A DNA stretch of 18,688 nucleotides from a virus, in IMG/VR virus record IMGVR_UViG_3300045988_169134, positions 1 through 18,688 of that record; one strand, given 5' to 3'. Shown here one piece after another: positions 1-18,688 of this stretch. Numbering within the stretch: position 1 is the stretch's first letter; the number at the start of each line of letters is the position of its first letter. A program made the translations under genes and the position numbers. A model generated the notes under the pieces. That model searched no databases, had not been told where the DNA came from, and saw only the letters and a list, made by a program, of their open reading frames with translations.

Positions 1-30
1 TTTTGGGAAACGGGCGCGCGGGCGCGCACG

Positions 31-60
31 CGTATACCCCATCTCGTCCATTCGTGTCAA
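31..60 (-). promoter_or_regulatory. Outward-facing promoter-like element in left ITR (TTGACA-N18-TATACG)
   Basis: The minus strand reads cTTGACA (60..55), 18 nt, TATACG (36..31). The C-TTGAC, the 18-nt spacer and the TATAC core match P1/P2, but the element points at the genome end about 30 nt away. The last -10 base is G rather than T. Function is unknown. Confidence 0.3.
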
Positions 61-397
61 GCCATCCTACCTGTGAGCTCCCTCGCATTTTATATCCTAC
101 CATGGATAGCACAAATCGGGTGGTCTTCCTCACGCCCTCTCGGCGCCGTCGGTCTCTCATCCATCCGGGGTCTCTCGGCGCGCCCTCCTCGCTGGTATGC
201 CTCAAATCGTCACGTAATGGCCGATTTCCCGGCTTCTCTCCCCCTCGTCGCTAGGGTCGCTTGGGTGCCTCTTTCTAAGGCTCTCAGAATCGATTCTCGT
301 GCTTCTGGCTGGCGCCGTCGTGTCCGACGCCCCCTCGTGAGATGTGATATCTCATATCTCACCCCGAGGAATGTGTCCCACATCACTCCCCTCGTCC

Positions 398-427
398 TTG
401 ACTTCGCCTCCGCCCTCGGGCTATACT
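398..427 (+). promoter_or_regulatory. Early promoter P1 (inside left ITR)
   Basis: TTGACT (398..403), 18-nt spacer, TATACT (422..427), then GGATACATC. A leader hairpin CCGAGGG/CCCTCGG lies at 438..456. SD-like AAAGGA (466..471) sits 7 nt before ATG 479. Confidence 0.6.
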
Positions 428-478
428 GGATACATCACCGAGGGAGAGGCCCTCGGGATAGCTCGAAAGGATCGAAAA

Positions 479-784
479 ATGAGCTACACGAAGAACGCCA
501 GGGTTGCCGAGGCGGTCATGGAGTCCACGCTCGGGGCCCAGACCCTTGCGGGGACCCCCCTCTATCAGATGGCGGGCCTGAACGTCAACCCCCGCTCGGA
601 CGGCTTCACGATCGAGTGGGAGGTCCGCCCCGGCCGCTTTGAGGCCCTCTACGAGCTTGATGCTCGCGGGGTCACCCAGACTGAGGATGGTGCGGCGCTC
701 ATCTCCTATCAGGAGCGCTACGGTGAACTCGGGATCGCCTGCGTGAGCGCCCTGCGCAGCGCTGTCGAGGATGCCTTCCTCTGA
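479..784 (+). CDS. Hypothetical early protein, 101 aa (MSYTKNARVAEAV...)
   Basis: ATG at 479 is preceded by AAAGGA and promoter P1. The ORF-track frame 344..784 would otherwise run through the promoter. Stop is TGA at 782..784, followed by a strong terminator. I recognise no domain. Confidence 0.75.
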   Translation: MSYTKNARVAEAVMESTLGAQTLAGTPLYQMAGLNVNPRSDGFTIEWEVRPGRFEALYELDARGVTQTEDGAALISYQERYGELGIACVSALRSAVEDAFL

Positions 785-825: not shown

Positions 826-869
826 CTGTGGTCGGCGGCCTTTGCGTGGGGTGTTTCACATTTTCCGGC

Positions 870-2600: not shown

Positions 2601-2614
2601 GTTTCACGTGAAAC
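2601..2614. repeat. 14-bp palindrome GTTTCACGTGAAAC, copy 1 (perfect)
   Basis: Read directly from the sequence. It lies between the stop of the left operon and the terminator hairpin, and overlaps the hairpin by 4 nt (AAAC). Confidence 0.9.
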
Positions 2615-2641
2615 CCCCCGGAGTAAGTTTCCGGGGGGTTT
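2611..2641. terminator. Bidirectional intrinsic terminator between convergent arms
   Basis: AAACCCCCCGGA (2611..2622) pairs perfectly with TCCGGGGGGTTT (2630..2641), with a 7-nt loop. The plus strand continues with the T-rich CTTTC. On the minus strand the hairpin starts 3 nt after the stop of the holin gene. Confidence 0.75.
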
Positions 2642-2644
2642 CTT

Positions 2645-2938
2645 TCATCTGGTGTTGGCGGCTGCGAGGCCGACGCCGAGGAAGCCGGCGATGGCGGGGC
2701 CGATGAGGGCGGCGGTCTCGCCGGTGACCCACCCGGCGGCGACGCCGAGCGGGATGAGGCCGGTGAGGGCTCGGTAGGCCCATTTGCGCCAAGGGAGCCA
2801 TCGGTCGGTGCCGGTCGTGTCGACGATGTCGCCGACGGCGGCGGGGGTGCCGTCGGCGACGGCGTGTTTGGCGGCCTGGAATGCTGCGAGGGTGCCGGTG
2901 TCGGTAACGCCGGTATCGAGGTGCTTGGGGGTGCTCAT
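2645..2938 (-). CDS. Putative holin, 97 aa, two C-terminal transmembrane helices
   Basis: ATG 2938 is preceded by GGAGGA. The C-terminus AYRALTGLIPLGVAAGWVTGETAALIGPAIAGFLGVGLAAANTR resembles actinophage/r1t-type holins as I recall them. It is adjacent to the endolysin and is the last gene of the minus-strand train. Confidence 0.65.
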   Translation of the reverse strand: MSTPKHLDTGVTDTGTLAAFQAAKHAVADGTPAAVGDIVDTTGTDRWLPWRKWAYRALTGLIPLGVAAGWVTGETAALIGPAIAGFLGVGLAAANTR

Positions 2939-3046
2939 TATCCTCCGTGGATGTATCTGTGGCAGTCTAGGTGATAGTGGACGACGTCGGGGTCGTCGGT
3001 GATGCAGATGAGCGGGATGGGGTCCCCACATCCCGCGCACCTGCAA

Positions 3047-4011: not shown

Positions 4012-5019
4012 TCACACCCCCTTGAAGGTCTGGATAAAGCAATTTCTCGTCTGTGGCTTGTCGAAATAGAGTTCCCCACGATTGTACATGCGTCTGGCCG
4101 ACGCTAGGAACGAATCGCGCGGAGAACAATACATCGTATGCTCTGTGACGAGCTTGACTTCGCTCGTTATGCGGAGTTGCTGTTTGGGGAGCTTTTCTTG
4201 GCAGTACCATCCGGACTGGCGCGGGTCGATCCACAGGGAGAATTCCCCGAGCTCGGTGACGACGGTGCACGCGTAGTCCGAGTAGTGTGGTTTCCTGCCG
4301 ATGAGAACGCCGTTGTTGTCGACGAAACGCGATTTCATCATATAGTCAGCGTTGTCGCCACCGACGGACGACAGAAATTTTCCGAATTTTGTTTTCGCGA
4401 CCTGGTCGGCGAAGACAGCGTCATCGGAGGTGTGGACGGCGATGAATCCGTCGTGGTACGTTTCGAACTCGCTTGATGGCACGATGCCGTATTTGATGAA
4501 GTATGGGTTAGTGATGGAGGCCGCGTTGGCGAGGAAGAGTGCCTGAACACGGTCGTCCCAGCGGTCGATCGTCGAATAAAAACCCTCGAAAATGTCGGCT
4601 TCCTTCGGTAGATACCGGGTGAGGCCTTCTTCGAGGATGAACTCGTCGAAAACGAGGGTTCCCACCTCGCGGAAGCTCATGGATTTGGCCTGTCTCGCTT
4701 GGGTGAGGGCGGTGCATCTGCCGACGAGGGCGCCGGTCTTGGTGCCATCGTCGACCCAGAGGGAGTTTTGACGCACGGTGAAGTCATGGTCGGGGAAACG
4801 TTCGGCGATGTCGGCCATGAACGTTTGAAACGCCGCCTTTTCGCCTTTATGGCGCCGGAGGTAGACGAACTGCGACCCTTTGTCGATGAAGCGGCGCAGC
4901 GCTATCTTTTTGGCGCCGTAGGTTTTCCCGGTGCCGCGGGCGCCTGTGACGACGGTCCACGGTGCATTGTAGGAGAGGATGGGCCCGAAGTCATAGTAGT
5001 TGAGGGCTTGTTTAGTCAT
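4012..5019 (-). CDS. DNA encapsidation (packaging) ATPase, phi29 gp16-like, 335 aa
   Basis: ATG 5019 is preceded by GAGGT. It has a Walker A motif (GARGTGKTYGAKK) and a Walker B-like motif (LVFDEF). It aligns by eye with phi29 gp16: GARGIGKSY, FIYVRRYK vs FVYLRRHK, FPDHE vs FPDHD, IVFDEFI, NPYF. Its length is close to that of gp16. Confidence 0.9.
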   Translation of the reverse strand: MTKQALNYYDFGPILSYNAPWTVVTGARGTGKTYGAKKIALRRFIDKGSQFVYLRRHKGEKAAFQTFMADIAERFPDHDFTVRQNSLWVDDGTKTGALVGRCTALTQARQAKSMSFREVGTLVFDEFILEEGLTRYLPKEADIFEGFYSTIDRWDDRVQALFLANAASITNPYFIKYGIVPSSEFETYHDGFIAVHTSDDAVFADQVAKTKFGKFLSSVGGDNADYMMKSRFVDNNGVLIGRKPHYSDYACTVVTELGEFSLWIDPRQSGWYCQEKLPKQQLRITSEVKLVTEHTMYCSPRDSFLASARRMYNRGELYFDKPQTRNCFIQTFKGV

Positions 5020-6379
5020 TGAGGTACCTCTTGACGCACCACCCGATTCCCCGCGTGTCCCTGATGAATTTCGACAACGAGTTTTTGTGCGGCCCGGGCA
5101 CTTCGCCGTGGAGCCCGCCGCCATGGCCCCATGTGAGGTCGCCGCCGGCGTACATTTCGACGTGGTCGACGCCGACGCGCCCGGATCCCCAGTCGTAGAA
5201 AACGAGGTCGCCGGGTTTCATGAGCGCCAGTTGTTGTGCGTTGATGCTTTTCGCGGTGTTCCAGTTGATGACGAAGCTGCCGTGGCCGTTGGCGCTCTGC
5301 GCGACGGTGTTGCCGCCGATGTCGATGCCGCAGACGTCGAGGTAGGCCCGCCGGCAGGTCGATGAGCAGTCGCCTACGCCGGACCGGTCAGGGTCGAGCC
5401 GGCCGGCGCCGTTCGAGTAGCGGAACTTGTTTTCCCGCGAAGCCATCCACCACACGAGTTTCTGGCGAGTCTCCGAGGTACCGGGCGCGAGCTGGCCGCC
5501 GCCGCCGCCAGTGCCGGGGCCGCCGTTCTGCCCGCCCGGCGTCGTGTCGGTCGGCGGCGGAGTGCCGGCGCCACCCGGGCCTGCGACGTACTGCCCCTGG
5601 CCATTCGGCGCGCATTGGACGATTTTGCCGTCGGCCATGTGCGCGATGGCGACGTTGCCGACGGCCTCTATCCTAGAGAGCGCCCCGGCAGTGGATCCTT
5701 GCTGCTGAGGGGCGTTAGTGCTGCCGCCGGGGTTGCCGCCGGAGCCGTCGCCCTGCGTCGGACCCGAGGGTGCGGGGGCGCCGGGCTCGACGCCGTCGAC
5801 CCCCGACGAGTCCATGTTTTTGATGATGGCGTATGCCGTATTGTAGCGATTACGGTATTTGCCGAGGACGGGCTCGGACAGGAGCGCCGCATGCCAGCGG
5901 TCGAGGTCGGCGCCGCCGATTTGGTTCGCTACCCGCAGGGCGCGCCTCGGGGACTGGTGATAGGCGACGAAAAACATGATCATCGACTGCGTATGCCGGT
6001 CCTTGTCGATGCCGCACCGGCTCGCCACCTGCACGTAGGCCTCTAGATCCTCCGCCATTTGCTTTTGCTGCACTCTGTAGGCGGCGCGGAGGACAGGCTT
6101 GACCTGGCCGTCCCAATAGTTGGGCAGGTAGTATGTGGCCCAGTTAATACTATTGGCGTTGACGAGCGACTGCAGCTGCGCCGGAAGCTTGGCGAACTCG
6201 TTGGGCATTTCCTGCTTGATGCGGTTGAGTAGCCCGTAGGCGCGGGGGCCGAACCATTGGCCGATCCCTATCGTGATCGGGTCCACGTGGTAGATGCCGT
6301 CGTAGCGCATGCCAGACTCCACTGTGCCGATCGCCTTGATGGCGACAGCCTTGGCTTTAGCATCCCACGCCACGAGCAC
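5012..6379 (-). CDS. Tail-associated peptidoglycan hydrolase (gp13-like), 455 aa
   Basis: The N-terminal domain carries GTVESGMRYDG, which resembles the lytic transglycosylase/lysozyme-like E-S motif. Two Gly/Pro-rich linkers follow. The C-terminal domain carries GVGDCSS...VDHVEMYAGG (NlpC/P60). The start is GTG 6379 or GTG 6373, after GGAGG. Its position, directly upstream of the packaging ATPase in the late gene block, loosely matches phi29 gene 13. Confidence 0.8.
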   Translation of the reverse strand: MLVAWDAKAKAVAIKAIGTVESGMRYDGIYHVDPITIGIGQWFGPRAYGLLNRIKQEMPNEFAKLPAQLQSLVNANSINWATYYLPNYWDGQVKPVLRAAYRVQQKQMAEDLEAYVQVASRCGIDKDRHTQSMIMFFVAYHQSPRRALRVANQIGGADLDRWHAALLSEPVLGKYRNRYNTAYAIIKNMDSSGVDGVEPGAPAPSGPTQGDGSGGNPGGSTNAPQQQGSTAGALSRIEAVGNVAIAHMADGKIVQCAPNGQGQYVAGPGGAGTPPPTDTTPGGQNGGPGTGGGGGQLAPGTSETRQKLVWWMASRENKFRYSNGAGRLDPDRSGVGDCSSTCRRAYLDVCGIDIGGNTVAQSANGHGSFVINWNTAKSINAQQLALMKPGDLVFYDWGSGRVGVDHVEMYAGGDLTWGHGGGLHGEVPGPHKNSLSKFIRDTRGIGWCVKRYLND

Positions 6380-6383
6380 CTCC

Positions 6384-6397
6384 GTTTCACGTGGAAC
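6384..6397. repeat. Palindrome copy 2, GTTTCACGTGGAAC (1 mismatch)
   Basis: Read directly from the sequence. It lies in the intergenic region, abuts hairpin 6397..6431, and ends at the SD of the tail lysin gene on the minus strand (GTTCCACGTGAAAC-GGAGG). Confidence 0.85.
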
Positions 6398-6431
6398 CGC
6401 CGCCCACGGATTTCAGGTCCGTGAGCGGCGG
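6397..6431 (-). terminator. GC-rich hairpin between fibre gene and tail lysin gene (terminator/attenuator or processing site)
   Basis: CCGCCGCCCACGGA (6397..6410) pairs with TCCGTGAGCGGCGG (6418..6431) at 13 of 14 positions, with a 7-nt loop. There is no clear U-tract on the minus strand. Confidence 0.45.
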
Positions 6432-6454
6432 AGTTCATAAAACAACAACGTGCT

Positions 6455-7684
6455 TTACAGTGTACTCCATGTCGCGCTGATGTTCAAGTTGCCGCTCCAC
6501 CCCTTCCAGGTTTGTAGGTGCTGGTTGGGGTGGATCTGGAACGGGATGTCTTCGGTGCCGGAAGCGCCACCGCGAGCGCTTCCGTTGACGGTGGCGCGGG
6601 GAGCTGCCCATTCGGGGATCATGCCGAGGTCGGCGCCGGTCGCGATCGACTGGCCGGTGATGATCCCGGAGAGCGAGACGAGGCCGCCGGACAGGCGCAG
6701 CGTCAGGGGCGTATCGCTGTGGGAGGCGCCGCCGGACAGGCCGATCCTGTAGTTTTGCGACACGGGGATCGGCTCGTTGCCGTATTGGAGGTAGTTGCCG
6801 GCGAGTGTTGCGAAACGGATGTCGCCGGTAGAGTTGAGGTGGATTTGACCCTCAGTGAAATATTTCGCGTAGCCGAGGCACCAGTATTCGGTGCCGACGT
6901 ATTCGGCGCCGTAATTGCCGCAGACCTCCTGCATCGCCGACAGGCAATTTGCGAGGCCGTTCTTCGATTTCGTGAGGATGTGGAGGTTGCTCCACGCCCA
7001 GACGGCGCTGAAAACGACGATTCTGGCGTTTTTGAATGCTCTTTTGGCGTCGGAGATGCAGGTAACCAGACCGTTGTAGATGTCAATCTCCTGCATCGCA
7101 TCGTTGCCACAGTCGGCGATAATGACGTATTTGACGTTATCGTTCGAGAAGCTGCCGTCGGCGATGGCGCGGTTCATCTGTACCTGAAAGTTGTCGGCGC
7201 CCTGTGCTATTCCTGTGCCACCTTTGGCAAAATTCTTCTCCGTAATGCCCATCGCTCTACACATGAGCGTCGGCCACTTGCCTTCGACAACGTTGGAGGT
7301 GCCGACGATGACGGCGCACAGCTCGGGCGCGGCTGCGTTTTTCAGTATATATCTACTATCAGACTCCTCCTTCGTGTAGCGATTGGCCACCTTTAGCCCG
7401 AGGTCGTCGTAGGCGGATTTCACCTGGCGGGTCGTCTCAGCTTTGGCGCGGCCTTCGGCGTCGGCGATTTTCTGATCGATCTGTTCGACGACCTTGTGGT
7501 CGCCGGCGACAGTGTCCTCCGCCTTTTTGATGCGGATTTCCATCGAATTAAATTTCGTGGTATCCTCGGCCGCCCTCAGGTCGATTTTGCGCATGTCGCC
7601 GTTATAATCGCCGCGCCAGGTAGGTTTATCGTTGTCGAGGAACTGTGACAACCCGAGAGCCTCAGTCTTGTCGGTAGAGCTCAT
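6455..7684 (-). CDS. Tail fibre/appendage protein with central SGNH/GDSL-like esterase domain, 409 aa
   Basis: ATG 7684 overlaps the TGA of the upstream gene; the track's TTG at 7687 is an alternative start. The N-terminus (ALGLSQFLDNDKPTWRGDYNGDMRKIDL) plus a coiled coil is typical of phage fibres. SGNH-like blocks are VIVGTSN, KGGTG, ADCGNDA and GQIHLNSTG. The C-terminal region is rich in Gly and Ser. Confidence 0.7.
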   Translation of the reverse strand: MSSTDKTEALGLSQFLDNDKPTWRGDYNGDMRKIDLRAAEDTTKFNSMEIRIKKAEDTVAGDHKVVEQIDQKIADAEGRAKAETTRQVKSAYDDLGLKVANRYTKEESDSRYILKNAAAPELCAVIVGTSNVVEGKWPTLMCRAMGITEKNFAKGGTGIAQGADNFQVQMNRAIADGSFSNDNVKYVIIADCGNDAMQEIDIYNGLVTCISDAKRAFKNARIVVFSAVWAWSNLHILTKSKNGLANCLSAMQEVCGNYGAEYVGTEYWCLGYAKYFTEGQIHLNSTGDIRFATLAGNYLQYGNEPIPVSQNYRIGLSGGASHSDTPLTLRLSGGLVSLSGIITGQSIATGADLGMIPEWAAPRATVNGSARGGASGTEDIPFQIHPNQHLQTWKGWSGNLNISATWSTL

Positions 7685-8187
7685 CAAATATCCTTTCGTA
7701 CTGCGTGAGGCGTCGTGGCCTCCGGGTCAAGGTCCCAGCCGCGAGCCTTCCAGCCGATCTCGTCAAGCTGCTTGGCGGTGGCACCTATACTGTCGGCCTC
7801 GATAGCGAAACGCGCCGCCGTGCGCAAGTTGCTGTACATGCTGGCGAGCGCCTCAGAGAGCGTCTTGGTGGTGATGCCGTCGACAGGGTCGGTGACGAAG
7901 ACTTTCTCGCCACCGCGGGCGGCGAGCTTCCTGTAGAGCTCGTCGATAGCGTACTGTATTTTACGATCAGTTTCGGCGCGCAGCTGCGCGACCGTCTTGT
8001 TAACGTTGGATTCGAGCTCGTTGCATATTTTTATGCATTTGTTGATGGCGTCGACCAGATTTTGACAGTTCCTAGCGACACGCTCGAGTTTTTCGACGTA
8101 GGTGATACCGTCGCGGAATGTGAACGGCGTCACATTCGTCAGCGGCGTATCCTGGATTGTGAAAAACGGCACATTTTCTACCGGCAT
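7684..8187 (-). CDS. Putative tail/neck structural protein, 167 aa
   Basis: ATG 8187 is preceded by GGGAGGT. It lies between the lower collar and fibre genes and has a central coiled-coil-like segment. No domain recognised; the call rests on synteny only. Confidence 0.55.
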   Translation of the reverse strand: MPVENVPFFTIQDTPLTNVTPFTFRDGITYVEKLERVARNCQNLVDAINKCIKICNELESNVNKTVAQLRAETDRKIQYAIDELYRKLAARGGEKVFVTDPVDGITTKTLSEALASMYSNLRTAARFAIEADSIGATAKQLDEIGWKARGWDLDPEATTPHAVRKDI

Positions 8188-8190
8188 TTG

Positions 8191-8904
8191 TTACCTCCCC
8201 CACCAAGGATACCATAGACCGAAAGGGTATGTCGCATCCGACCCGACATGGGCGTCCCCGGACGAGGCGATTCCCATGAAAAGCGGCTCTAGCTCGGCGA
8301 CAACCATTTGGTCGACGTTGATCATCGCCTGGCGATACTCCATAACGAGCGCAGCGCCGGACGTCATCCTACCTCGCTGGCCTGACCTGGCGTGCGACTC
8401 CGCCATGTCCGAGTGAGAGGCGTCGGAGGTTGCCTTTTGGTCGTTTTTGCCGGCGGTGCGCCCCTCCGACGTCGTGCCGGTCGTCGCATAGTCCCCCTCT
8501 TTGTAGATGGGGCTGCCGGGGTAGGCGTGCTCGCGTCCGGCCGACGTCGACTCGCCGGACGACGTAGACTCGCTGGACGACGTAGATTTCTGATTGCCGC
8601 TGCCGGACTGACTGGCGTCGGTCCACGTCGTCATGTCCACCGCAGAGAGTGGGTCGTACTGCAGCCTAGTCGATTCGTAGAGTTGGTTGTAGTAGGGCAT
8701 GACGAGGCGCAGTTTCGCGGCGACCTGTTGCCGGAAAATGTCGATCGTCTCGAAACCTATCTCGCGGTAGCAGTAGACCTCGTACAGGGTTTGGTTGAGT
8801 TGCTTTCGATAGGCCTCATCGAAAATGGGGTAGGCTTCGACGCCCCAGTCGCCGCCGGTGACGTCGACGACGTCCCGGAGAAGCATGGTAAAATCGGCTG
8901 CCAT
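8191..8904 (-). CDS. Lower collar protein (phi29 gp11-like), 237 aa
   Basis: ATG 8904 overlaps the TAA of the connector gene. The N-terminal pattern YPIFDEAYRKQLNQTLYEVYCYREIGFETIDIFRQQVAAKLRLVMPYYNQLYEST matches my recollection of picovirus lower-collar proteins. The position after the connector matches phi29. Confidence 0.7.
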   Translation of the reverse strand: MAADFTMLLRDVVDVTGGDWGVEAYPIFDEAYRKQLNQTLYEVYCYREIGFETIDIFRQQVAAKLRLVMPYYNQLYESTRLQYDPLSAVDMTTWTDASQSGSGNQKSTSSSESTSSGESTSAGREHAYPGSPIYKEGDYATTGTTSEGRTAGKNDQKATSDASHSDMAESHARSGQRGRMTSGAALVMEYRQAMINVDQMVVAELEPLFMGIASSGDAHVGSDATYPFGLWYPWWGR

Positions 8905-9824
8905 TAGACCTCCATCTCGCTCGCGACGTCGAGGTTGCCGACGAACCCCTCGATCATGGCGTCGGTGAGCCGCCAGCTGACGGAGACGTCGAGCCCGTAT
9001 TTCCTGTTGATTTTCTCGCAGGCTTGCTCGCGCTGGGAAAGCGCCATGCCGCGGAACGCCATCGTTTGCCCATCCAGTGAGTTAGCCTCGTCTGCGACCA
9101 TGCGCTCTTTTTTGCCCGGGGGCGCTGCCTGGATACCCAACATCATCATCGCATCGTTCCAGATGGCTCTGCGTGCCGCCAAATTCTCGGTGACAACCTG
9201 AGGGTGGACCTGGTTGGGGATGGTGACAACTTTCTCGGCGATGGACTCGCCGCCGTTGGTTTTGATCGTATAGATGACCGGCTGCCCCTCTACGAGCTGG
9301 CGCTGAAAATTCTGGGCCGTCAACATCTCGGACGGCTCCACAGCCAATATGAGTGGATTTCGCGTATTGGCAAGGTTGATGTCGATCGTACGATCAATTT
9401 CCGACAGTCGCGCCGCGTAGGCGGTCACGACATCGTTATCCGGCTCATGCATATCATTAGCCCAGATAGGTACGCAGTCACGAGATTTGACGTGTCGGTT
9501 GATCTTACTATTGGCGTTGAGATAGTAGGAGAGCGGCCGATTGTAGATGTCGCGGTCGCCGCTCGGAGTGCCCGCCAGCGCCGTGAAAATCCGGAAATGC
9601 GGGTCGAGAGAGAAAACCACGAGCCCATTCTTGTGGAGGGTCATCTCCACATACCGCTCGTCGACAGTATCCGGCAGCCCCTCCCATTTGAATCTTGCCA
9701 TGGCGAGCATCCGAAGCGTCCGCCAGTAGATGTTGAAATTCATGCCCGTGCGGGCCATCGCTTCGTTTCTTTTGAAGCGTCCCCGCGCGGTCACCATATC
9801 GTAGACATCATCGGCACCTTTCAC
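8904..9824 (-). CDS. Head-tail connector / portal (phi29 gp10-like), 306 aa
   Basis: It aligns by eye with phi29 gp10: FKWEGLPDTV vs FEWENLPPTI, GDRDIYNRP vs GQRDVYNQA, KKERMVADEANSLDGQ vs KKERMVTDEVSSNDEQ, REQACEKINRKYGLDVSVSWR vs [21 protein letters not shown]. Its length is near gp10's. The GTG start at 9824 overlaps the upstream TGA; ATG 9797 is an alternative. Confidence 0.9.
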   Translation of the reverse strand: MKGADDVYDMVTARGRFKRNEAMARTGMNFNIYWRTLRMLAMARFKWEGLPDTVDERYVEMTLHKNGLVVFSLDPHFRIFTALAGTPSGDRDIYNRPLSYYLNANSKINRHVKSRDCVPIWANDMHEPDNDVVTAYAARLSEIDRTIDINLANTRNPLILAVEPSEMLTAQNFQRQLVEGQPVIYTIKTNGGESIAEKVVTIPNQVHPQVVTENLAARRAIWNDAMMMLGIQAAPPGKKERMVADEANSLDGQTMAFRGMALSQREQACEKINRKYGLDVSVSWRLTDAMIEGFVGNLDVASEMEV

Positions 9825-12049
9825 AGTTTCACCACCTCGTATGGGCCGTTTTCGTAGATTTTCATGGTCGGTATCTCCTCGGGGTCCCCCCAGACGGTCG
9901 TGCCCGACTCGAAAATGCCGCGAATCGTGTCAACGAACATCTGAGGACACCGCGGCGCCTCGATATGCACGTCCGCGAGCCTCCAGTACGTGAAATGCGT
10001 CATCAAATCGAGTCGGTAGGCGGCCATGTCGACGTAGCGGTTGCAGGCGTATCCGTATCTCGCGAAAAACTGCGCGACACGGTGGGCGGCGCCCGAGTTG
10101 AGACCGCGAATCCGCAGCCAGACCGCCCACCCGGACGTGGTCAGCATGAAAGCATCGCCACCAATCTGGCCCGACGTCGACGGCTGGGTGAGCTGCGTGT
10201 CCTGGACGCGCGCGTTGATGCCGGCGATCGCATTGGCATAGTCGCCCTTGGCGACCATGTCGGCGTAGGCCCTGTTCGTGTCGCGATTGTAGGCAGCGAG
10301 GTGGTTTTGGGCCTGGTTGATTTGGGATGCGAGCTGATTGGAGATGCCCGTGGAGGCCGCCGCCGTCGAGTTAGCGAGCTCGGTCTGCGCGTTCCTGGCG
10401 GTGGTGTTGATGTTGTTCGATGCCGCTGCGGTCGCGATCGAGGCGCCACCCCTCAGGGCGCCGCCGATGTTGCCGCTCAGGAGATTTCCGACGACGCCGA
10501 GGCCTGTGTTAGCCATGGAAAGTTTCGTCTGGTCCCATGCGGCGTCGTTGGTGATCGCCGTCGACTGGGACCTGGCAGCGTTCGACAAGTCCGTCTGGGC
10601 GGTGCGGGCCGCGTTGCCAAGGTTGGTGGTGGCCGTCGACGTCGCCATCGCCTGGCTCGCTTGGTCGTAGGCAAGTTGGTTGCCGGCAAGTGCTTTTTGC
10701 TGCCCCCACTCGGCGGACTGTCGAGAAAACGCGATCGAATGCGCCTGGTTGGCCAGGGCGGCGATCCCGGCGTTGTTGGTGATCGAGAATGTCGGAAAAT
10801 TGGTAAAATAGATGCTGCAGTCTAGATAGCTGCCGTCCAGCGCTCCCTTCTGCGCTGGGCCGTCCTTGAGATAATCCTTCACCCAGCAAACGACGCGGGG
10901 CGACGGTGGTGCGAAATGCCGCAGACAGGCGATCGTCGTGACGCCACCTTTCGGCAGGTACTCGGGGCGGAGCGTCATGGACTGCCCGGCGTAGTTGGTG
11001 AGCTCTATCCACACGAAAGGCGACGTGAAAAGCTTTGAATAGTTCTTCTGCCAGTCGGGGTATGCGAGGGCTCCTGCCATCGACAGCATGCCGTCGGGGA
11101 AAAATGTCTGCTGACGGCCCCACATGACGGCGCTGGCGTGCTGATCACCCTGCTTGCGTGCGCGGACGATTGCGACGTTATTGAGGTCCATCCCGGGAAT
11201 GAAGTGACTGTCGGGAAGCTCGCATTCGTGGCTGTAGACGACGTCGAGAAACGGATGTTGACCTCCGCTATCGCCCCATGGCATGATCTGGATCGATTGG
11301 ATCCCCTGCGCCACCCACGGGTAGAGGCTGCACGACAGCGCGAAGACCTCGAAAGCCGCGATACTGCGGAAAATAATAATATCAGCGCCGTTCGGCAGCC
11401 CCTCGAACCCAGAGCCCTTGGCGGTGTCGAGGTGAGGATTTTGTGTGTTGCCGGGGTTTCCCGTGAAATCGGTGCCGGCAATGACCATGACGCCACAATC
11501 CTGCAGGGTGGCGAGGTCATATCGCTCGGTCCACTGCACCATGTAGTCGGCGCCAAGGTCGAGACCCTCGGTCTCCCTGAGTACGTCGTGATTACGGCCG
11601 CGCCATGTGGCCGCCACCGGCAGATGTCCGCGCTCGACGTAGGCGGTGCGCAGCCGGACGTTCCAGCAATAGGTTGTCCATACATCGAGCTGCAGGGCGA
11701 GCTCGATCGTGTCGGGCGCTACCTGTACGATATCGTTGATGAAATAGTAGTAGACCCTGATGTCGTCGTCTTGTGAGTGGAGGTTAGAGAGTTTCGGGTC
11801 ACGCACGCGGATGTAGTTGAACTGCATCGCCTGCGGCCAGGGTATATCAAGTCGTACTGTTTGCTGTTGAGTGAGGGGGGTGAATTTATTGATTGTGAGC
11901 GACTTGCCGCCCTTGCGGCGCAGATAGGCGTCGATCTGCCTAAAATTCTGCCATTTGACAATGTTTCGGTATTGGGCGTCGTAGTCGACGCGGGCGAGGA
12001 GCACCTCGCTGCCGGGCCCCCAGCCTGCCCATTGCGGCATGATTGACAC
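9821..12049 (-). CDS. Tail knob / distal tube protein (phi29 gp9-like), 742 aa
   Basis: ATG 12049 is preceded by AGGAGGTG. The N-terminal and C-terminal segments align by eye with phi29 gp9, e.g. FFARYGYACNRY vs FFHKYGYKINRV and TIRGIFESGTTVW vs EIRTIFDNGITLW. A long Ala/Asn/Gln/Thr/Gly-rich insert occupies the position of the gp9 loop. Confidence 0.85.
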   Translation of the reverse strand: MSIMPQWAGWGPGSEVLLARVDYDAQYRNIVKWQNFRQIDAYLRRKGGKSLTINKFTPLTQQQTVRLDIPWPQAMQFNYIRVRDPKLSNLHSQDDDIRVYYYFINDIVQVAPDTIELALQLDVWTTYCWNVRLRTAYVERGHLPVAATWRGRNHDVLRETEGLDLGADYMVQWTERYDLATLQDCGVMVIAGTDFTGNPGNTQNPHLDTAKGSGFEGLPNGADIIIFRSIAAFEVFALSCSLYPWVAQGIQSIQIMPWGDSGGQHPFLDVVYSHECELPDSHFIPGMDLNNVAIVRARKQGDQHASAVMWGRQQTFFPDGMLSMAGALAYPDWQKNYSKLFTSPFVWIELTNYAGQSMTLRPEYLPKGGVTTIACLRHFAPPSPRVVCWVKDYLKDGPAQKGALDGSYLDCSIYFTNFPTFSITNNAGIAALANQAHSIAFSRQSAEWGQQKALAGNQLAYDQASQAMATSTATTNLGNAARTAQTDLSNAARSQSTAITNDAAWDQTKLSMANTGLGVVGNLLSGNIGGALRGGASIATAAASNNINTTARNAQTELANSTAAASTGISNQLASQINQAQNHLAAYNRDTNRAYADMVAKGDYANAIAGINARVQDTQLTQPSTSGQIGGDAFMLTTSGWAVWLRIRGLNSGAAHRVAQFFARYGYACNRYVDMAAYRLDLMTHFTYWRLADVHIEAPRCPQMFVDTIRGIFESGTTVWGDPEEIPTMKIYENGPYEVVKL

Positions 12050-12159: not shown

Positions 12160-13800
12160 CTAGACGACGTTTACAGTATACTCTCCGTAGCTCTTGCCAT
12201 CAAGTCCAGCGATTGTGAGCTTCACCACGAAGCCAGCCTCACCCTTGGCGATCGAGACCGCCGTCGCGAAGACGTTGACACCGACCGGGTAGACCTGACT
12301 CTCGGCGCCATCCTCCGCCAGCAACGCCTTGCGGGAGCGGGTGACTGTGTATTCCTTCGTCGCTTCGGCGAATTTCGCAACCCGGCGTCCGAGAACGTCA
12401 ATCCCCTTCAGCTCACTCCTCGTTGCCGGCCACTCCGGGAAGGACGGACCACCGATGCCGGTGAACTCAGCCTCCAGTCGAGCGCCGTCCGCCTCCGCGG
12501 CGACGATGATCGGGCCGAGCTCACGCGGGCCGATCGAGAGGACGCCAGCCTGAGAGACCTGTGTGCGAGAGTCGGTGCCGCGCACCGACCAGTTGATGTC
12601 CGGATCGGTGCCGCCGCCGGTGCAGGTCGCTTCCAGCTGATAGTTGCCGCCGCGCACCATATCCTGGCCCTGAACCTCCTTCGCACCCTCGCCGTATGCT
12701 TTGATGGCGGTGATGGCCGTGACGGGATCTTTGGCGAGGACGCGCTCGGTTTCGCCGCCGGTCCAAAACATGATCGCCGGCACGAAACGACTGCAAGAGA
12801 TGATTTCGTGGTGGTGCAGGAAAATGTTTTCCTGACTCGGCTCCGTCGGATCCTGAAAATTCAGGTTTTCCAGGAGCGTGTCGGCAACGACGAAGAAATC
12901 GCTGTCGACGAGGATCGCCTGGCAGCCGCCCTGCGGGAAATATTCGGCCGGCACCTCGATGATATGGTAGGGCACCTCAGCGTAGCTGACGTTGAAAAGC
13001 GCCGCGAGCCCCTCGACGTCCAGTGCCGCATTCGCCTCTGGCGTGATGAACATCACCAGGTTGTCAGGCTTGGCCGCAATCGGGAAGCGCGCCGCGTTGT
13101 AGTAGGGACTCCGGAATTTCAAATTCCCCGCCATGGCGCGCATCTTGCGCAGTGCCAGCCTGACGTCGCGATCGGTGACATCCTGCGCCGAAATATCGGG
13201 GATGTGTGCGTGGTAGAAGCCCCCGCGCCGCTCGTACTCGGTGAAAAGTCTCGACATGAGGAGGAACTCGTCCCATTTGTCCGACTCGCTCGGGGCAGCC
13301 ATGATGTCCGAGATGAGCCCGGACATGTCGCCCTCGCCGAGGAAAGCGCTTTTAATGACGGCGCGCTCCACAGAGACCGGATAGACGTCCATCCGATTCT
13401 TTTCATGGAAACTAACGTCGATCGGCACCCTGTGCGTGCCGAAAGCCATCTTTTCGCCGAAGCTCCGGTTCGGGTCGTAGGCCTTGGCGCGGATCAGGCC
13501 CGTCTGGTACTCTTCGATGCCGTTACCGTATTCGATGAGGCCTCGCTTGAATCTTGCGAGGGGGTTTGTCCACGAGTTGTGACGGGCGACGATCGTGCCG
13601 ATCTGCGTCATCAGCGCCGTGTAGATGGGATTCCACAGCTGGCGGTGCTGATCCAGGTAGCGGACCGTCGTCTCCACGCCGGCCTGCGTCGGCGACGGGA
13701 TGCGTGCCTTGTAGCCGATACTGGCACCGTTGATGGCGACCTGCAGGAGCTCACCGTTGCTGACGCCGGGCTTCAGGGACGGGATGTTGGGTACGGGCAT
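12160..13800 (-). CDS. Major capsid protein (phi29 gp8-like) with C-terminal Ig-like domain(s), 546 aa
   Basis: ATG 13800 is preceded by GGAGGA. It aligns by eye with phi29 gp8: NPLARFKRGLIEYGNGIEEY vs [26 protein letters not shown] vs FHERNR, RKMRAMAGNL vs KKMRATARKL, LVDSDFFVV vs LVDKDWFMV, SCSRF vs SVSRF. The C-terminal segment ...INWSVRGTDSRTQVSQAGVLSIG... looks like a Big_2 domain, as in gp8. Confidence 0.9.
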   Translation of the reverse strand: MPVPNIPSLKPGVSNGELLQVAINGASIGYKARIPSPTQAGVETTVRYLDQHRQLWNPIYTALMTQIGTIVARHNSWTNPLARFKRGLIEYGNGIEEYQTGLIRAKAYDPNRSFGEKMAFGTHRVPIDVSFHEKNRMDVYPVSVERAVIKSAFLGEGDMSGLISDIMAAPSESDKWDEFLLMSRLFTEYERRGGFYHAHIPDISAQDVTDRDVRLALRKMRAMAGNLKFRSPYYNAARFPIAAKPDNLVMFITPEANAALDVEGLAALFNVSYAEVPYHIIEVPAEYFPQGGCQAILVDSDFFVVADTLLENLNFQDPTEPSQENIFLHHHEIISCSRFVPAIMFWTGGETERVLAKDPVTAITAIKAYGEGAKEVQGQDMVRGGNYQLEATCTGGGTDPDINWSVRGTDSRTQVSQAGVLSIGPRELGPIIVAAEADGARLEAEFTGIGGPSFPEWPATRSELKGIDVLGRRVAKFAEATKEYTVTRSRKALLAEDGAESQVYPVGVNVFATAVSIAKGEAGFVVKLTIAGLDGKSYGEYTVNVV

Positions 13801-13803
13801 CTA

Positions 13804-14094
13804 TCAGTCCTCCGCGATAATATCTTCGAGTGTCAGAGATTCGGGGTCGACGTCGGCGACCGACGTTTCGGGCGCCTCATCGATCGCGGAGTGCTCGACG
13901 ATCGCGCGCAGCTCCGTGCACTGGGCGAGCGCCTCCTCGGCGATCTGCCGCACCTCGGAAATCATCTCCGTCAGGTCGGCGTCGATGGCGTCGGACTCCG
14001 CCTTCACGACGTCCGACTCATCCATCTCCTCAGGAGTCGGCGCTTCGTCCGGCTCTGTTTCACGTGAAACATCGTCTTCAGGCGTGTCCGCCAT
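13804..14094 (-). CDS. Putative scaffolding protein, highly acidic, 96 aa
   Basis: ATG 14094 is preceded by GGAGGA. The protein is very rich in Asp/Glu and appears predominantly helical. It lies immediately upstream of the capsid gene, as phi29 gene 7 does. Confidence 0.7.
   Translation of the reverse strand: MADTPEDDVSRETEPDEAPTPEEMDESDVVKAESDAIDADLTEMISEVRQIAEEALAQCTELRAIVEHSAIDEAPETSVADVDPESLTLEDIIAED
14057..14070. repeat. Palindrome copy 3, GTTTCACGTGAAAC (perfect), inside scaffold CDS
   Basis: Read directly from the sequence. It lies 24 nt downstream of the scaffold start codon and encodes Val-Ser-Arg-Glu-Thr. Confidence 0.9.
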
Positions 14095-14236
14095 GTATGT
14101 CCTCCGATCGGTAGTAGGGGATGCCGCCCCCCGGCGCCGGACGGCACCCAGCCACGGGATCAGGGCTGCGGCCGGTCTCACCCGGGGCTCTCCGCGCGCC
14201 CATCGCCGGCGCGCACGGGAGGGGCATCATGTGCGC

Positions 14237-14245
14237 AGTATATCA
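14237..14245 (-). promoter_or_regulatory. Candidate extended -10 promoter (TGATATACT) for the morphogenesis block
   Basis: The minus strand reads TGA-TATACT-G. The TATACTG core is the same as in P1/P2, and the TG of the polymerase stop codon sits in the extended -10 position. I found no convincing -35. It lies in the only large non-coding gap (14095..14242) of the minus-strand train. Confidence 0.3.
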
Positions 14246-15913
14246 CATCACCGCCATCCCCGACCAGTCTTTGAGCGTGTAGGTCTCGCGGACGTAGGCG
14301 GCGCCGCCGGGCACCATCCGGCAGACCCGGTTCTCTAGGACGGCGTAGGGGCGGACGTCCTCGTAGCGGACGAGCGGCGCCAGGTCGCCAGACAGGCCCG
14401 CCATGACGGCCGTCGAGCCGATACCGGAGTCCAGGTAGTATTGCTTGGGCCCGACGAATTTCGCCCTGTCGAACATGTCGCGCCGGGACCATTGACCCAA
14501 GCTCTCGCCGACGTCGGCGCCACGAGGCGGCTCGTCCCCGAGGAGGATGACCGAGTCCGTGTCGTAGTAGAGTAGGCGGTCATAGTTGGCGTTGGCGACG
14601 CGCACGAGCTCCCGGCGCCCGTAGGCGGTCACGAAGGCCGCTAGAGCGGGGTAGGTGCTGTTGACGTAGCGTTGACTGATCTTGAAGGGTTTTAGTATGC
14701 CGTCGGTGTGGACGAGGGTCGGGCCATCGTCTTCGCGCGAGTCGACGAGCTCGTAGCCGAGTCCCTGTTCTACCATGAGCGTCCGTGTCGCGAATTTCCC
14801 GTACACCGTGTTTAGAGCTTGTTTGGCGACAAGACGCATCGCCGGATCCGAGTGGGACTTCATCTCATAGAGCGGCTCGATGTACGGCGCCAGGTCCCCC
14901 GTCGATCCCTCATACTCGAAACATGAATTCCAGCACCACACATCGAAATCATAGTAGGTCGTAAGATATTCGTAGTCGACGGATGTGATCCAGCACGACG
15001 TAGAGACGTCGTCGTCCCACACCTTCGTGCCACACTCGGTTTTCTGGAAAAAGCATGGCACACCCCACCCTAGGCGACCCTCGCAGACGACGTTCGCAAT
15101 CCAGAGCCCGTCCATGTCCTCCGGCGCCCCCTCGTGGTAGTAGGGGCGCCCGACCGGCAGGCGCTCGCCCGCCATGATCGACGGGTAGAGCGAGTTGACG
15201 TCCCACGAGGTCCCGGCACCCACCTCCGCGAAAGGCCTCGCTTCCGGGCCGAGGTTGCACAGGCCGGGCAGGTAGGCGGCGCGGAGCATCTCCGACTCAG
15301 GGACGCCCGTCGGCGCCGGGTAGAGGCTGTCGAAATCTGCCACCGCCTCGCGGAGCCGCGCGAACGCATGCGAGGCCTGAGTCATTTTCCTCGACGACCA
15401 GGCATCGTCGAAAGAGACGGCAGCGGCCAACACGTCGAGATAGACCCGCGGCCACGGGACGTCCAAGGCCAGGTCCGTCACCCACTGGGGGTGGAGAGTC
15501 TCCGCCAGGGCGTCGAAATCAAGCGGCAGGAGGGCCTCGACGCCGCGGATCGACACCGACCGACCCGGCGCCACGGGGGTATTGAGCGAGAAAAACTGAC
15601 CGTCGCCCGTGTACAGGCCAGACATCCGGTCAACGGGGCGCCGATAGTCGGGGGACCAGGTGATGCCGCGCTCGATGTAGTCGGCGACGATGCAGGGGCC
15701 GACAAGGTCCATGTCCCACGTGTAGGCGACCTGGTAGGCGGCGAGGTCGGCTTCGGCGTCGGCGAACGTTTCATGTGAAACATAGTTTTCGCCGTCGAGT
15801 CCCATGAGGTGGACGGAGGTTATCGAGGCGCGCTCGCCGTCGTAGGCGGTCTCCACCCACAGGACGCAGACGTCAGATCGCTCTAATTGTTTGTTCGATC
15901 GCTTTGAAGACAT
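14243..15913 (-). CDS. Protein-primed family-B DNA polymerase (phi29 gp2-like), 556 aa
   Basis: ATG 15913 is preceded by GGAGGGAGGA. Motif A is WDVNSLYPS, motif B is KQALNTVYGKFA, motif C is LYYDTDSV, and a KxY motif (PKQYY) is present. It aligns by eye with phi29 polymerase along its whole length, including the C-terminal MVPGGAAYVRETYTLK vs QVPGGVVLVDDTFTIK. It overlaps the terminal-protein gene by 41 nt. Confidence 0.93.
   Translation of the reverse strand: MSSKRSNKQLERSDVCVLWVETAYDGERASITSVHLMGLDGENYVSHETFADAEADLAAYQVAYTWDMDLVGPCIVADYIERGITWSPDYRRPVDRMSGLYTGDGQFFSLNTPVAPGRSVSIRGVEALLPLDFDALAETLHPQWVTDLALDVPWPRVYLDVLAAAVSFDDAWSSRKMTQASHAFARLREAVADFDSLYPAPTGVPESEMLRAAYLPGLCNLGPEARPFAEVGAGTSWDVNSLYPSIMAGERLPVGRPYYHEGAPEDMDGLWIANVVCEGRLGWGVPCFFQKTECGTKVWDDDVSTSCWITSVDYEYLTTYYDFDVWCWNSCFEYEGSTGDLAPYIEPLYEMKSHSDPAMRLVAKQALNTVYGKFATRTLMVEQGLGYELVDSREDDGPTLVHTDGILKPFKISQRYVNSTYPALAAFVTAYGRRELVRVANANYDRLLYYDTDSVILLGDEPPRGADVGESLGQWSRRDMFDRAKFVGPKQYYLDSGIGSTAVMAGLSGDLAPLVRYEDVRPYAVLENRVCRMVPGGAAYVRETYTLKDWSGMAVM
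15768..15781. repeat. Palindrome copy 4, GTTTCATGTGAAAC (1 mismatch), inside polymerase CDS
   Basis: Read directly from the sequence. It encodes Val-Ser-His-Glu-Thr in the exonuclease domain. The shared flank GAAACAT also follows copy 3. Confidence 0.85.
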
Positions 15914-16715
15914 TCTTCGTCCTCCCTCCATTTCGGCCCGTGTTGGGGTTGTTCTCGCCCATTTGGACGCGGGAGAAATCCAGCTTCATCAGCTTATAGG
16001 CGTTGCGGAGATTCTGGGCGAGGGTGGAGTCGCGCCAGAGCACCATGAAGGCCGCCATGCCCTTGCCCTTTTGGGCGATCTTCGCCTCCATTTGCTTGCG
16101 GATGCGCTCGCCCTCCTCGCCGAGCTCGGACGTCATCGACGTGAAGGACCTCCACGCTTTGTCTTGCTGGTATTTGCGGCCCTCCGCCGACAGGAGGAAA
16201 TCGAGGCGCGCCATGTGCTTGTCGAAAGCCTTCTTCGACGCGTATTGCTTGACGCCGCGGTTGCGGGAGGCGATCGGGTCGGAGTCGACGCCCGGGACCC
16301 CGATGTAGCGGGGCGCCCTACCCTTCCTGGTTTCCTTCTCGGTGAACATTTGCTGCAGCGACATGCCGCTCGACGGGTCGACGTAGCGGGCGAATTTCCT
16401 GCGCTGGCGGGCCGCCCGCTCGTTCAGGCGTCGCTGACGATTCCGGAGGATGTCCATGTCGGTTTTCGATATGACATCACCCTTCTGGGTGCCGTAGAAT
16501 TGGACGCCGCGCGATGTGAAGACCTTCATCCGGTTGATGTAGGTCTTCAGTTCCTTCACCGACATGCCGCGAATGTCGTCCAGTGACGACGGATCCGGGT
16601 GGTATTCGGTGCCGCGCAAGTCCACGCCCTGTTTCTTCAGGCGGTTAAGCTTCTGCATCGCCCGGCGCCGAGCCAGCGCCGCATCCCTCTGCCAGGAGGC
16701 TTTTGTCTTAGCCAT
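15873..16715 (-). CDS. Terminal protein (phi29 gp3-like), 280 aa
   Basis: A basic protein encoded immediately upstream of, and overlapping, the polymerase gene. It aligns by eye with phi29 TP: KKQGVDL vs KKKYGVDL, VFTSRGVQFYG vs SFTNRANMRYQF. Ser248 in KLDFSRV lies 32 aa from the C-terminus; the phi29 priming Ser232 lies 34 aa from its C-terminus in EFDSEG. Confidence 0.8.
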   Translation of the reverse strand: MAKTKASWQRDAALARRRAMQKLNRLKKQGVDLRGTEYHPDPSSLDDIRGMSVKELKTYINRMKVFTSRGVQFYGTQKGDVISKTDMDILRNRQRRLNERAARQRRKFARYVDPSSGMSLQQMFTEKETRKGRAPRYIGVPGVDSDPIASRNRGVKQYASKKAFDKHMARLDFLLSAEGRKYQQDKAWRSFTSMTSELGEEGERIRKQMEAKIAQKGKGMAAFMVLWRDSTLAQNLRNAYKLMKLDFSRVQMGENNPNTGRNGGRTKNVFKAIEQTIRAI

Positions 16716-16771: not shown

Positions 16772-17164
16772 TTACGGCCGCCGGCGCCTCGTCGGCGTCC
16801 GAGCCGACCCAGCCGGCTCCGCCTTCTGGCGGGGCGTCGTCCCCAGATAGGTTGCCGACCGGATCACCAAGTCGGTGCGCACGACGCCGTCAGAATCCGT
16901 CCACTCGTCCAGCGCCAGCTGGCCGGAGACGGCCACGAGGTCGCCTTTCCGGGAGGTATCGGCAACCGCCTCGGCGACGGCGCCCCACACAGAGGCGACC
17001 ACCCAGAGAGTCGGGCCGGCGTCCACCCACTCGTCCGACCGCGGGTCGCGTTTGCGGGGCGTGTGGGCGATCGAGAGATTGGCGACGGCCAGGCCGTCAT
17101 TCGTGTAGCGGACCTCCGGCGCGGCGCCGAGGAAGCCCTGGATCGTAATGTTAGCGGAAGTCAT
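16772..17164 (-). CDS. ssb: Single-stranded DNA-binding protein (OB fold), 130 aa
   Basis: ATG 17164 is preceded by AAGGAG. The sequence NITIQGFLGAAPEVRYTNDGLAVANLSIAH...WVVASVWGAVAEAVADTSRKGDLVAVSGQLALDEWTDSDGVVRTDLVIRSATYLG follows the bacterial/phage SSB OB-fold pattern. The C-terminal tail is basic (RRRRP) rather than acidic. Confidence 0.8.
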   Translation of the reverse strand: MTSANITIQGFLGAAPEVRYTNDGLAVANLSIAHTPRKRDPRSDEWVDAGPTLWVVASVWGAVAEAVADTSRKGDLVAVSGQLALDEWTDSDGVVRTDLVIRSATYLGTTPRQKAEPAGSARTPTRRRRP

Positions 17165-17818: not shown

Positions 17819-18210
17819 CAGAGGGCCTCCAGGTCGAAGTGGAAGCCGTGGACCGTCGACTCCACCGGCGGAGCGACGAGGTCGAAGCAGTCGATATTGG
17901 AGCACGCAGAGACGAGCTCCCAGACGACCTCGGTGACTCCGACCCTGATCGGGCCGTGCTCTAGCCAGCGCCTCGATCGCCCTGAGAGGTCGGCGACGAA
18001 GCAGATCCCGGACCAGTCGACGACATCAACCACGACGACCAGCGAGCCATACGCCTCGAAATCCCTGGCTGTGATTGAAAAATCCACGATCGCGGCAACG
18101 TCCATCGGGTAGCGGACGCTAGTGCAGACAAGACGGCCGTCGGCGTAGCCGGTGAAGCACTGGTCGAGGGCAGCACACACGCCTTGAATGGCATCGGATA
18201 GGTAGCTCAT
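17818..18210 (-). CDS. Hypothetical early protein, 130 aa (MSYLSDAIQGV...)
   Basis: ATG 18210 and the first three codons lie inside the right ITR, preceded by the ITR copy of P1 and its SD. The sequence diverges from the left-arm gene after Met-Ser-Tyr. No domain recognised. Confidence 0.75.
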   Translation of the reverse strand: MSYLSDAIQGVCAALDQCFTGYADGRLVCTSVRYPMDVAAIVDFSITARDFEAYGSLVVVVDVVDWSGICFVADLSGRSRRWLEHGPIRVGVTEVVWELVSACSNIDCFDLVAPPVESTVHGFHFDLEAL

Positions 18211-18261
18211 TTTTCGATCCTTTCGAGCTATCCCGAGGGCCTCTCCCTCGGTGATGTATCC

Positions 18262-18291
18262 AGTATAGCCCGAGGGCGGAGGCGAAGTCAA
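18262..18291 (-). promoter_or_regulatory. Early promoter P1' (right ITR copy of P1)
   Basis: Mirror image of 398..427: TTGACT (18291..18286), 18 nt, TATACT (18267..18262) on the minus strand. It presumably drives the right-arm early/replication genes. Confidence 0.6.
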
Positions 18292-18628
18292 GGACGAGGG
18301 GAGTGATGTGGGACACATTCCTCGGGGTGAGATATGAGATATCACATCTCACGAGGGGGCGTCGGACACGACGGCGCCAGCCAGAAGCACGAGAATCGAT
18401 TCTGAGAGCCTTAGAAAGAGGCACCCAAGCGACCCTAGCGACGAGGGGGAGAGAAGCCGGGAAATCGGCCATTACGTGACGATTTGAGGCATACCAGCGA
18501 GGAGGGCGCGCCGAGAGACCCCGGATGGATGAGAGACCGACGGCGCCGAGAGGGCGTGAGGAAGACCACCCGATTTGTGCTATCCATGGTAGGATATAAA
18601 ATGCGAGGGAGCTCACAGGTAGGATGGC

Positions 18629-18658
18629 TTGACACGAATGGACGAGATGGGGTATACG
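18629..18658 (+). promoter_or_regulatory. Outward-facing promoter-like element in right ITR (TTGACA-N18-TATACG)
   Basis: TTGACA (18629..18634), 18 nt, TATACG (18653..18658), pointing at the right terminus. It is the mirror of 31..60. Confidence 0.3.
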
Positions 18659-18688
18659 CGTGCGCGCCCGCGCGCCCGTTTCCCAAAA

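Follow-up and report, generated by a model that had tools for sequence, protein, structure and literature searches.

Dispersed parS-type palindromes in a phi29-like phage genome suggest mimicry of the host centromere

The 14-bp palindrome GTTTCACGTGAAAC, which recurs along an 18.7-kb phage genome, is on sequence grounds the core of parS, the near-universal bacterial centromere and binding site of a ParB (Spo0J) dimer. It is likely that its four copies are parS sites, by which the phage would mimic the host centromere and recruit the ParB protein of its host. The initial annotation of this DNA had matched the motif to no operator consensus known to it, while the motif in fact is the consensus parS (PMC7022226). 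It was right in describing the dyad as the type of site that a dimeric DNA-binding protein would occupy.

The window, which is the whole stretch of DNA analysed, represents a complete linear genome of 18.7 kb with a GC content of 62% and perfect inverted terminal repeats of 487 bp. The Phi29_MCP capsid protein, the connector, the gp9 knob, the gp16 ATPase, the type-B polymerase and the lower collar, together with the terminal repeats, identify it by gene content as a phi29-like protein-primed podovirus (Table 1). Nearly all genes lie on the minus strand, and a short plus-strand arm (341–2595) converges on them at about position 2600. The gene layout is the same as in Actinomyces phage Av-1. 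Ten ORFs have no recognisable function, and neither lysogeny genes nor ParAB are present in this phage. The terminal repeats are very long for a phi29-like phage, and each contains an inward promoter-like site of the form TTGACT-18-TATACT. An Rfam scan of the window returned no family at threshold, packaging RNA included. In the equivalent opposite-strand arm of Av-1 a packaging RNA is annotated (16295–16402), and a divergent pRNA may lie within positions 341–2600 of the window. Between the polymerase and scaffold genes is a gap of 148 nt that is very rich in GC and contains several inverted repeats, e.g. GCGCGCC...GGCGCGC; it gave no promoter-like match.

Comparison of the whole window with GenBank phages by megablast gave no match, and the capsid protein shares no more than 42% identity with those of isolated phages (Arthrobacter, Curtobacterium and others). 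A contig from the assembly of run ERR589657 is identical to the genome, whose capsid protein falls into a 90% cluster of 321 metagenomic sequences. Neither the capsid protein nor an endolysin alignment, used as queries against the GTDB reference genomes, gave a match. The closest tail lysin of an isolated phage is that of Av-1 (41.6%), which is only a weak hint at the host. The relatives were found in samples whose identifiers follow the style of the Human Microbiome Project, and a protein of one close relative has been deposited solely as a "MAG TPA" record. Because of the lysin, the sample identifiers and this record, an actinobacterium of a human-associated community is a reasonable but unproven guess for the host.

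Table 1. Coordinates of features in the window and of parS-type sites in other phage genomes. The last column gives the relatives scored, followed by those with a perfect copy, one mismatch, or worse.
Feature	Genome	Position	Strand	Remarks	Relatives scored (perfect / one mismatch / worse)
Copy 1	window	2601–2614		perfect 14-mer, intergenic, where the plus arm meets the minus-strand genes	8 (2 / 6 / 0)
Copy 2	window	6384–6397		GTTTCACGTGGAAC, one mismatch, between GDSL-like tail gene and NlpC/P60 tail lysin gene	10 (3 / 5 / 2)
Copy 3	window	14057–14070		perfect 14-mer, inside putative scaffold gene (minus strand), codons 9–13 (VSRET)	11 (10 / 1 / 0)
Copy 4	window	15768–15781		GTTTCATGTGAAAC, one mismatch, 5′ part of DNA polymerase ORF (minus strand), VSHET	9 (6 / 3 / 0)
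Look-alike	window	11456–11469		GTTTCCCGTGAAAT, two mismatches, inside tail-knob gene	
Half-site GTTTCAC	window	853–859	+	isolated, upstream of promoter-like site 870–899	
Inverted terminal repeats	window	1–487, 18202–18688			
Promoter-like site, left repeat	window	398–427	+		
Promoter-like site, right repeat	window	18291–18262	-		
Predicted terminator hairpin	window	2610–2642			
Hairpin after GDSL-like gene	window	6398–6431			
Polymerase–scaffold gap	window	14095–14242	-		
Holin, weak match	window	2645–3046			
gp16 packaging ATPase	window	4012–5124			
NlpC/P60 tail lysin	window	5012–6379			
Lower collar	window	8191–8904			
Connector	window	8904–9824			
Tail knob	window	9821–12049			
Phi29-type major capsid protein	window	12160–13800	-		
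Putative scaffold gene	window	ATG at 14094	-	first gene after DNA polymerase	
Type-B DNA polymerase	window	14243–15931	-		
SSB	window	16772–17164			
Tandem pair	Voltaire (L026)	8743, 8762			
Tandem pairs	phi29-like L056	5526/5552, 12131/12155			
Tandem pair	phi29-like L044	6546/6580			
Tandem pair	phi29-like L067	5615/5649			
Tandem pair	phi29-like L142	9084/9113			
Tandem pair	phi29-like L212	7669/7695			
Tandem pair	phi29-like L097	8470/8501			
Perfect parS	siphovirus-like contig L236	7826–7839		directly after called gene	

Rescanning of the window returned exactly the positions and sequences of the copies given in the initial annotation. Copy 3 extends to a perfect 16-mer, TGTTTCACGTGAAACA (14056–14071). 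Dinucleotide-preserving shuffles (n = 200) contained on average 0.02 matches at up to two mismatches, and the five of the window were reached in none. As a control set, all 420 palindromes obtained by permutation of the GTTTCACGTGAAAC half-site, and thus of the same composition, were scanned. The motif itself gave four matches at no more than one mismatch and each of the other 419 palindromes gave none, which shows that the recurrence is real. The claim that the motif does not recur by chance, and the scan against a shuffled null proposed along with it (0.02 expected, four to five seen), are thereby borne out.

The identity of the motif is evident from the parS sequences of bacterial chromosomes. 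According to the review table in PMC7022226, chromosomal parS reads TGTTNCACGTGAAACA in Bacillus subtilis and Corynebacterium glutamicum and exactly GTTTCACGTGAAAC in Mycobacterium smegmatis. The parS consensus is a 16-bp palindrome, tGTTNCACGTGAAACa, with the 14-bp core GTTTCACGTGAAAC, and the Actinobacteria studied so far use a consensus of the GTTTCACGTGAAAC type (PMC7022226). The full-text literature that contains the 14-mer deals nearly entirely with ParB and parS. Compared with this consensus, the window contains two perfect 14-mers, one of them within a perfect 16-mer, one canonical GGAAC variant and one copy with a central mismatch. The GGAAC variant is copy 2, the canonical form of B. 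subtilis and phi29, which reads GTTCCACGTGAAAC on the other strand. The central CACGTG was also considered as a restriction site and rejected, since genomes avoid restriction sites instead of accumulating them, and a length of 14 bp is too great for one.

Two of the copies are intergenic and adjoin hairpins. Copy 1 is located just past the stop of the last plus-strand gene. The hairpin next to it, GC-rich and of 14 pairs, is flanked on either side by a T-rich tract and is the top terminator-like match in the window; it is predicted to be a bidirectional terminator at the point of convergence. The hairpin shares 5 nt with copy 1, the right half of which, GAAAC, forms the base of the stem. Among the relatives, the terminator stem shows compensatory changes, CCGGAG/CTCCGG versus CGAGAG/CTCTCG, and all genomes with the CGAGAG/CTCTCG stem have a central mismatch (CACGAG or CACGGG) in the adjoining parS copy. 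On the minus strand, the GDSL-like gene is followed by a 14-bp hairpin, then by copy 2 and then by the GGAGG ribosome-binding site of the lysin gene. The scan of the window for promoter-like sites predicted no promoter at any of the four copies. The arrangement AGGAG, GTTTCAC and GTG at 2596–2610 was considered as a translation start and rejected, as the sequence in most relatives is AGGAT and the terminator comes directly after.

Two further elements had been connected with the motif. The look-alike in the tail-knob gene had been counted as a copy; its coordinates are right, but it is not kept in the relatives and is among the least conserved 15% of 14-nt windows, so it was rejected as a functional copy. 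It resembles a hybrid of parS and the Firmicute Noc-binding site, which is ATTTCCCGGGAAAT. This resemblance was the sole ground on which a Noc site was considered, and Noc is not known outside the Firmicutes. In sister clades, the region upstream of the gene for the terminal protein repeatedly contains the related variant GTTTCCCGTGAAAC. The other element is the half-site, 10 nt upstream of a TTGACG-18-TATACT promoter-like site and within a conserved promoter-proximal block, through which the motif had been linked to the promoter P2. Isolated GTTTCAC half-sites number three, and about 1.4 are expected for heptamers of the same composition. Since they are not enriched, this half-site is not attributable to the motif and the proposed link lacks support.

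Conservation in related phages, which the initial annotation had suggested as a check, was assessed in 11 relatives from IMG/VR with 86–90% nucleotide identity to the window, eight near-complete genomes being rebuilt. All four positions are retained across the 11 relatives, and every near-complete relative genome has at least two perfect copies. Copy 3 belongs to the top 1.4% of conserved 14-nt windows. The remaining three are no outliers in this shallow clade, being found at the 12–28% level among 14-nt windows; this counts against the parS reading, as do the central mismatches CACGAG, CACGGG and CATGTG of several relatives. The two coding copies read GTT TCA CGT/CAT GAA AC and encode VSRET/VSHET. 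In this GC3-rich genome, GTT accounts for 8%, TCA for 6%, CGT for 8.5% and GAA for 27% of the codons in their own synonymous families, and the joint probability of the VSRE spelling is 1.2e-4, which is true of both copies. Only two VS[RH]ET peptides occur in the 14 minus-strand genes examined, and both are spelled with rare codons. Across 12 genomes, copy 3 shows no change at its four synonymous third positions, and the flanking synonymous sites vary. The peptide of copy 4 is VSHET in the window, VSRET in most relatives and VSCET in one. The rare codons, the invariant synonymous positions of copy 3 and the positions kept in 11 relatives show that selection acts on the DNA rather than on the protein; the evidence is strong for copy 3 and moderate for the others. 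Both coding copies are found at codons 9–13 past a conserved ATG (M-x7-VS[RH]ET; 14057–14094 and 15768–15805, minus strand), and this equal spacing may be a coincidence. The true start of the polymerase is uncertain, because the ATG at 15805 is inside a long polymerase ORF with its first start at 15931.

The distribution of the motif extends beyond the close relatives. In sister clades with 46% (capsid), 85% (NlpC/P60) and 71% (GDSL) amino acid identity to the window, one-mismatch sites precede the terminal-protein gene and also occupy the GDSL/NlpC junction, as in the window, a perfect site is located inside a left-arm gene, and the scaffold and polymerase genes have none. The presence of the sites thus persists while their positions turn over between clades, which fits a centromere better than an operator. 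Strong mosaicism is seen between the loci L241–L265 and positions 5012–7687 of the window, the tail lysin and GDSL-like proteins being close and the capsid distant; it suggests exchange of a host-interaction module with a parS copy at the junction inside it. In Glutamicibacter phage Voltaire, two perfect 16-mers occur at a distance of 19 bp. Tandem pairs of perfect parS sites, 19–34 bp apart, recur in other phi29-like genomes (Table 1), and the window has none. No such site was found in the representatives of the closest isolated relatives, namely Av-1 and the Bifidobacterium, Arthrobacter and Curtobacterium phages; the family can thus do without the trait.

The exact 14-mer was found in at least 119 IMG/VR viral stretches, and at least 22 phi29-like phages are among the matches listed, several of them with three to six sites or tandem pairs. 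The phi29-like genomes bearing the 14-mer span 28–62% GC. An unbiased sample of 80 metagenomic phi29-like loci, retrieved via the packaging ATPase, contained 20 sites at no more than one mismatch in 12 loci (about 15%). As 0.16 sites are expected, this is an approximately 100-fold enrichment, and the next-best control palindrome reached four sites. A perfect parS is also present in a 48.8-kb siphovirus-like metagenomic contig that encodes the endolysin of this phage (about 64–68% amino acid identity); the capsid protein of this contig indicated no host. A 2024 review of 2,115 phi29-like genomes mentions none of parS, ParB and Spo0J. Our searches of the accessible literature met with no description of host-type parS in phi29-like phages other than those of Bacillus, an absence that is not proof.

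The precedent for such sites is phi29 itself, whose genome has five parS sites (PMC2731898). The parS sites of the Bacillus phages phi29 and Nf are bound by the host Spo0J, as PMC2731898 relates from Meijer et al. (2005). Phi29 uses the host Spo0J for entry of its genome into the prespore, with Spo0A repressing the lytic programme (PMC2731898). As a positive control, the same scan was applied to phi29 (NC_011048) and returned exactly five sites, all tGTTTCACGTGGAACa-like, with 0.1 under the null. The phi29 site at 17244 is flanked by the stop codon of gene 16 on one side and, at a distance of 4 nt, by the bidirectional terminator TD1 on the other. The window phage resembles phi29 and Nf in being a protein-primed phi29-type podovirus with four to five dispersed host-type parS sites that are partly intragenic, in having one of them beside a bidirectional terminator at the convergence of transcription, and in the lack of a phage ParB; its copy 2 is the same variant as the phi29 sites. 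The two differ in that the capsid protein matches that of phi29 at the family-profile level only, the GC content is 62% against 40%, the terminal repeats measure 487 bp against 6 bp, the early and late genes of the window are co-oriented, and the sites occupy non-homologous positions. Furthermore, the host is probably a human-associated actinobacterium, so entrapment in endospores may not apply.

Other systems share single traits with the window. The chromosomal ParABS systems of M. smegmatis, C. glutamicum and Streptomyces coelicolor have the same 14-bp core in several copies per replicon. However, chromosomal parS is found near oriC beside parAB, whereas the sites of the window are dispersed over a linear phage genome without ParA or ParB. 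In P1/P7, N15 and the integrase-less cluster A mycobacteriophages, centromere-like repeats on the phage genome serve extrachromosomal inheritance, as is proposed here. N15, a linear plasmid-prophage, has four centromere sites dispersed on its linear genome. These phages are temperate and encode their own ParA and ParB along with their own centromere (for the parABS of cluster A mycobacteriophages, see the work cited in PMC8612146), whereas the window phage would copy the site of its host. The stoperators of cluster A phages are likewise a short motif repeated genome-wide, partly within and between genes, that may block transcription when bound. Stoperators are 20–35 asymmetric sites that follow the direction of transcription and bind a repressor of the phage; the motif of the window has none of these traits.

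The protein that would bind the sites is most likely supplied by the host. Searches with Pfam and PHROGs found no ParB, helix-turn-helix or other DNA-binding domain in any phage ORF. The early ORFans have no homologues in other motif-bearing phi29-like genomes, not even in sister clades with shared lysis and tail modules. Host ParB is the only common denominator. With the parS consensus taken from other bacteria, we propose that a dimer of the host ParB (Spo0J) nucleates on each copy and spreads as a CTP-dependent clamp. As the sites are 1.7–7.7 kb apart, most of the 18.7-kb linear genome could be covered. The phage DNA would thereby be coupled to the ParA/ParB segregation and pole-anchoring machinery of the host, and possibly to SMC. 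The likely pay-off would be that the genome of a delayed lytic phage travels with the host origin region into the daughter cells, or into spores if these are formed. In a host that forms no spores, the benefit would have to be other than spore entrapment, the sole one that has been shown experimentally; it might consist in inheritance in a carrier state, targeting to the pole, silencing by ParB, titration of ParB or recruitment of SMC.

Binding of host ParB could also serve the lytic cycle rather than inheritance, which we consider unlikely. Many replicated genomes with four sites each might draw ParB off the host origin and thus disturb segregation, division or replication control; or host SMC/condensin might be loaded on the phage DNA, so that replicated genomes are compacted and resolved before packaging. 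The sequence evidence for such a use is the same as for inheritance. The trait is present in Glutamicibacter phages and in a high-GC clade associated with human metagenomes, where spore entrapment is unlikely, and to our knowledge Glutamicibacter does not form spores. In addition, ParB–parS is the loading site of SMC in B. subtilis and C. glutamicum (PMC7022226, review table). On the other side, the published role in phi29 is segregation into the prespore (PMC2731898), and four sites per genome would be a weak decoy for ParB unless the copy number is high.

The other explanations dispense with ParB. The lead idea of the initial annotation was an operator at which a dimeric regulator of the phage, an early ORFan protein, would set the timing of early and late transcription. 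The copies at the start of the first late gene, at the 5′ end of the polymerase, upstream of the lysin ribosome-binding site and at the terminator would suit such a role, as would the ten ORFs of no recognisable function, among which a binder could still hide despite the lack of a recognisable DNA-binding domain. It is nevertheless very improbable, given that the sequence is identical to host-type parS, that the predicted promoters all lie away from the four copies, and that the 14-mer is enriched in phi29-like phages, sister clades included, that share no early ORFans with this phage and differ in the positions of the sites. An ORFan binder is therefore disfavoured, whereas the host factor named beside it stands as a candidate, the motif being parS. 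Least probable, and hardly to be credited, is a functionless by-product of a VSRET peptide repeated in two genes and of T-rich tails of hairpin terminators at the intergenic copies. It would account for two copies encoding the same peptide in the same frame, each eight codons past an ATG, and for two copies abutting hairpins, where TTTCAC could act as a minus-strand U-tract. However, a peptide does not explain a rare-codon spelling of P 1.2e-4 that occurs twice with invariant synonymous positions, and a terminator tail needs no full 14-bp palindrome. The absence of matches for 419 control palindromes and the independent enrichment of the motif in unrelated phi29-like genomes also speak against it.

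Host-centromere mimicry, the preferred reading, replaces a mystery operator with a concrete host–phage interaction, namely four predicted host ParB sites on a lytic genome. Mimicry of parS is known in phi29, where the use of Spo0J and parS has so far been viewed as a sporulation-linked speciality of Bacillus phages. New is its presence in a distant high-GC clade, with hints of a far wider spread than the accessible literature records. This clade, the Glutamicibacter phage and about 15% of the sampled contigs suggest that virulent protein-primed phages commonly ride on host segregation. We tentatively raise the possibility that copying of the host centromere has evolved repeatedly and is general among strictly lytic phi29-like phages, including those of non-sporulating Actinobacteria, such as Voltaire with its Glutamicibacter host and probably the phage of the window. 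If this is the case, ParB-driven inheritance in a carrier state, pole positioning or silencing would be a hidden, gene-free form of persistence. Such persistence would bear on pseudolysogeny, on carrier states in microbiomes and on how "lytic" the phi29-like phages are.
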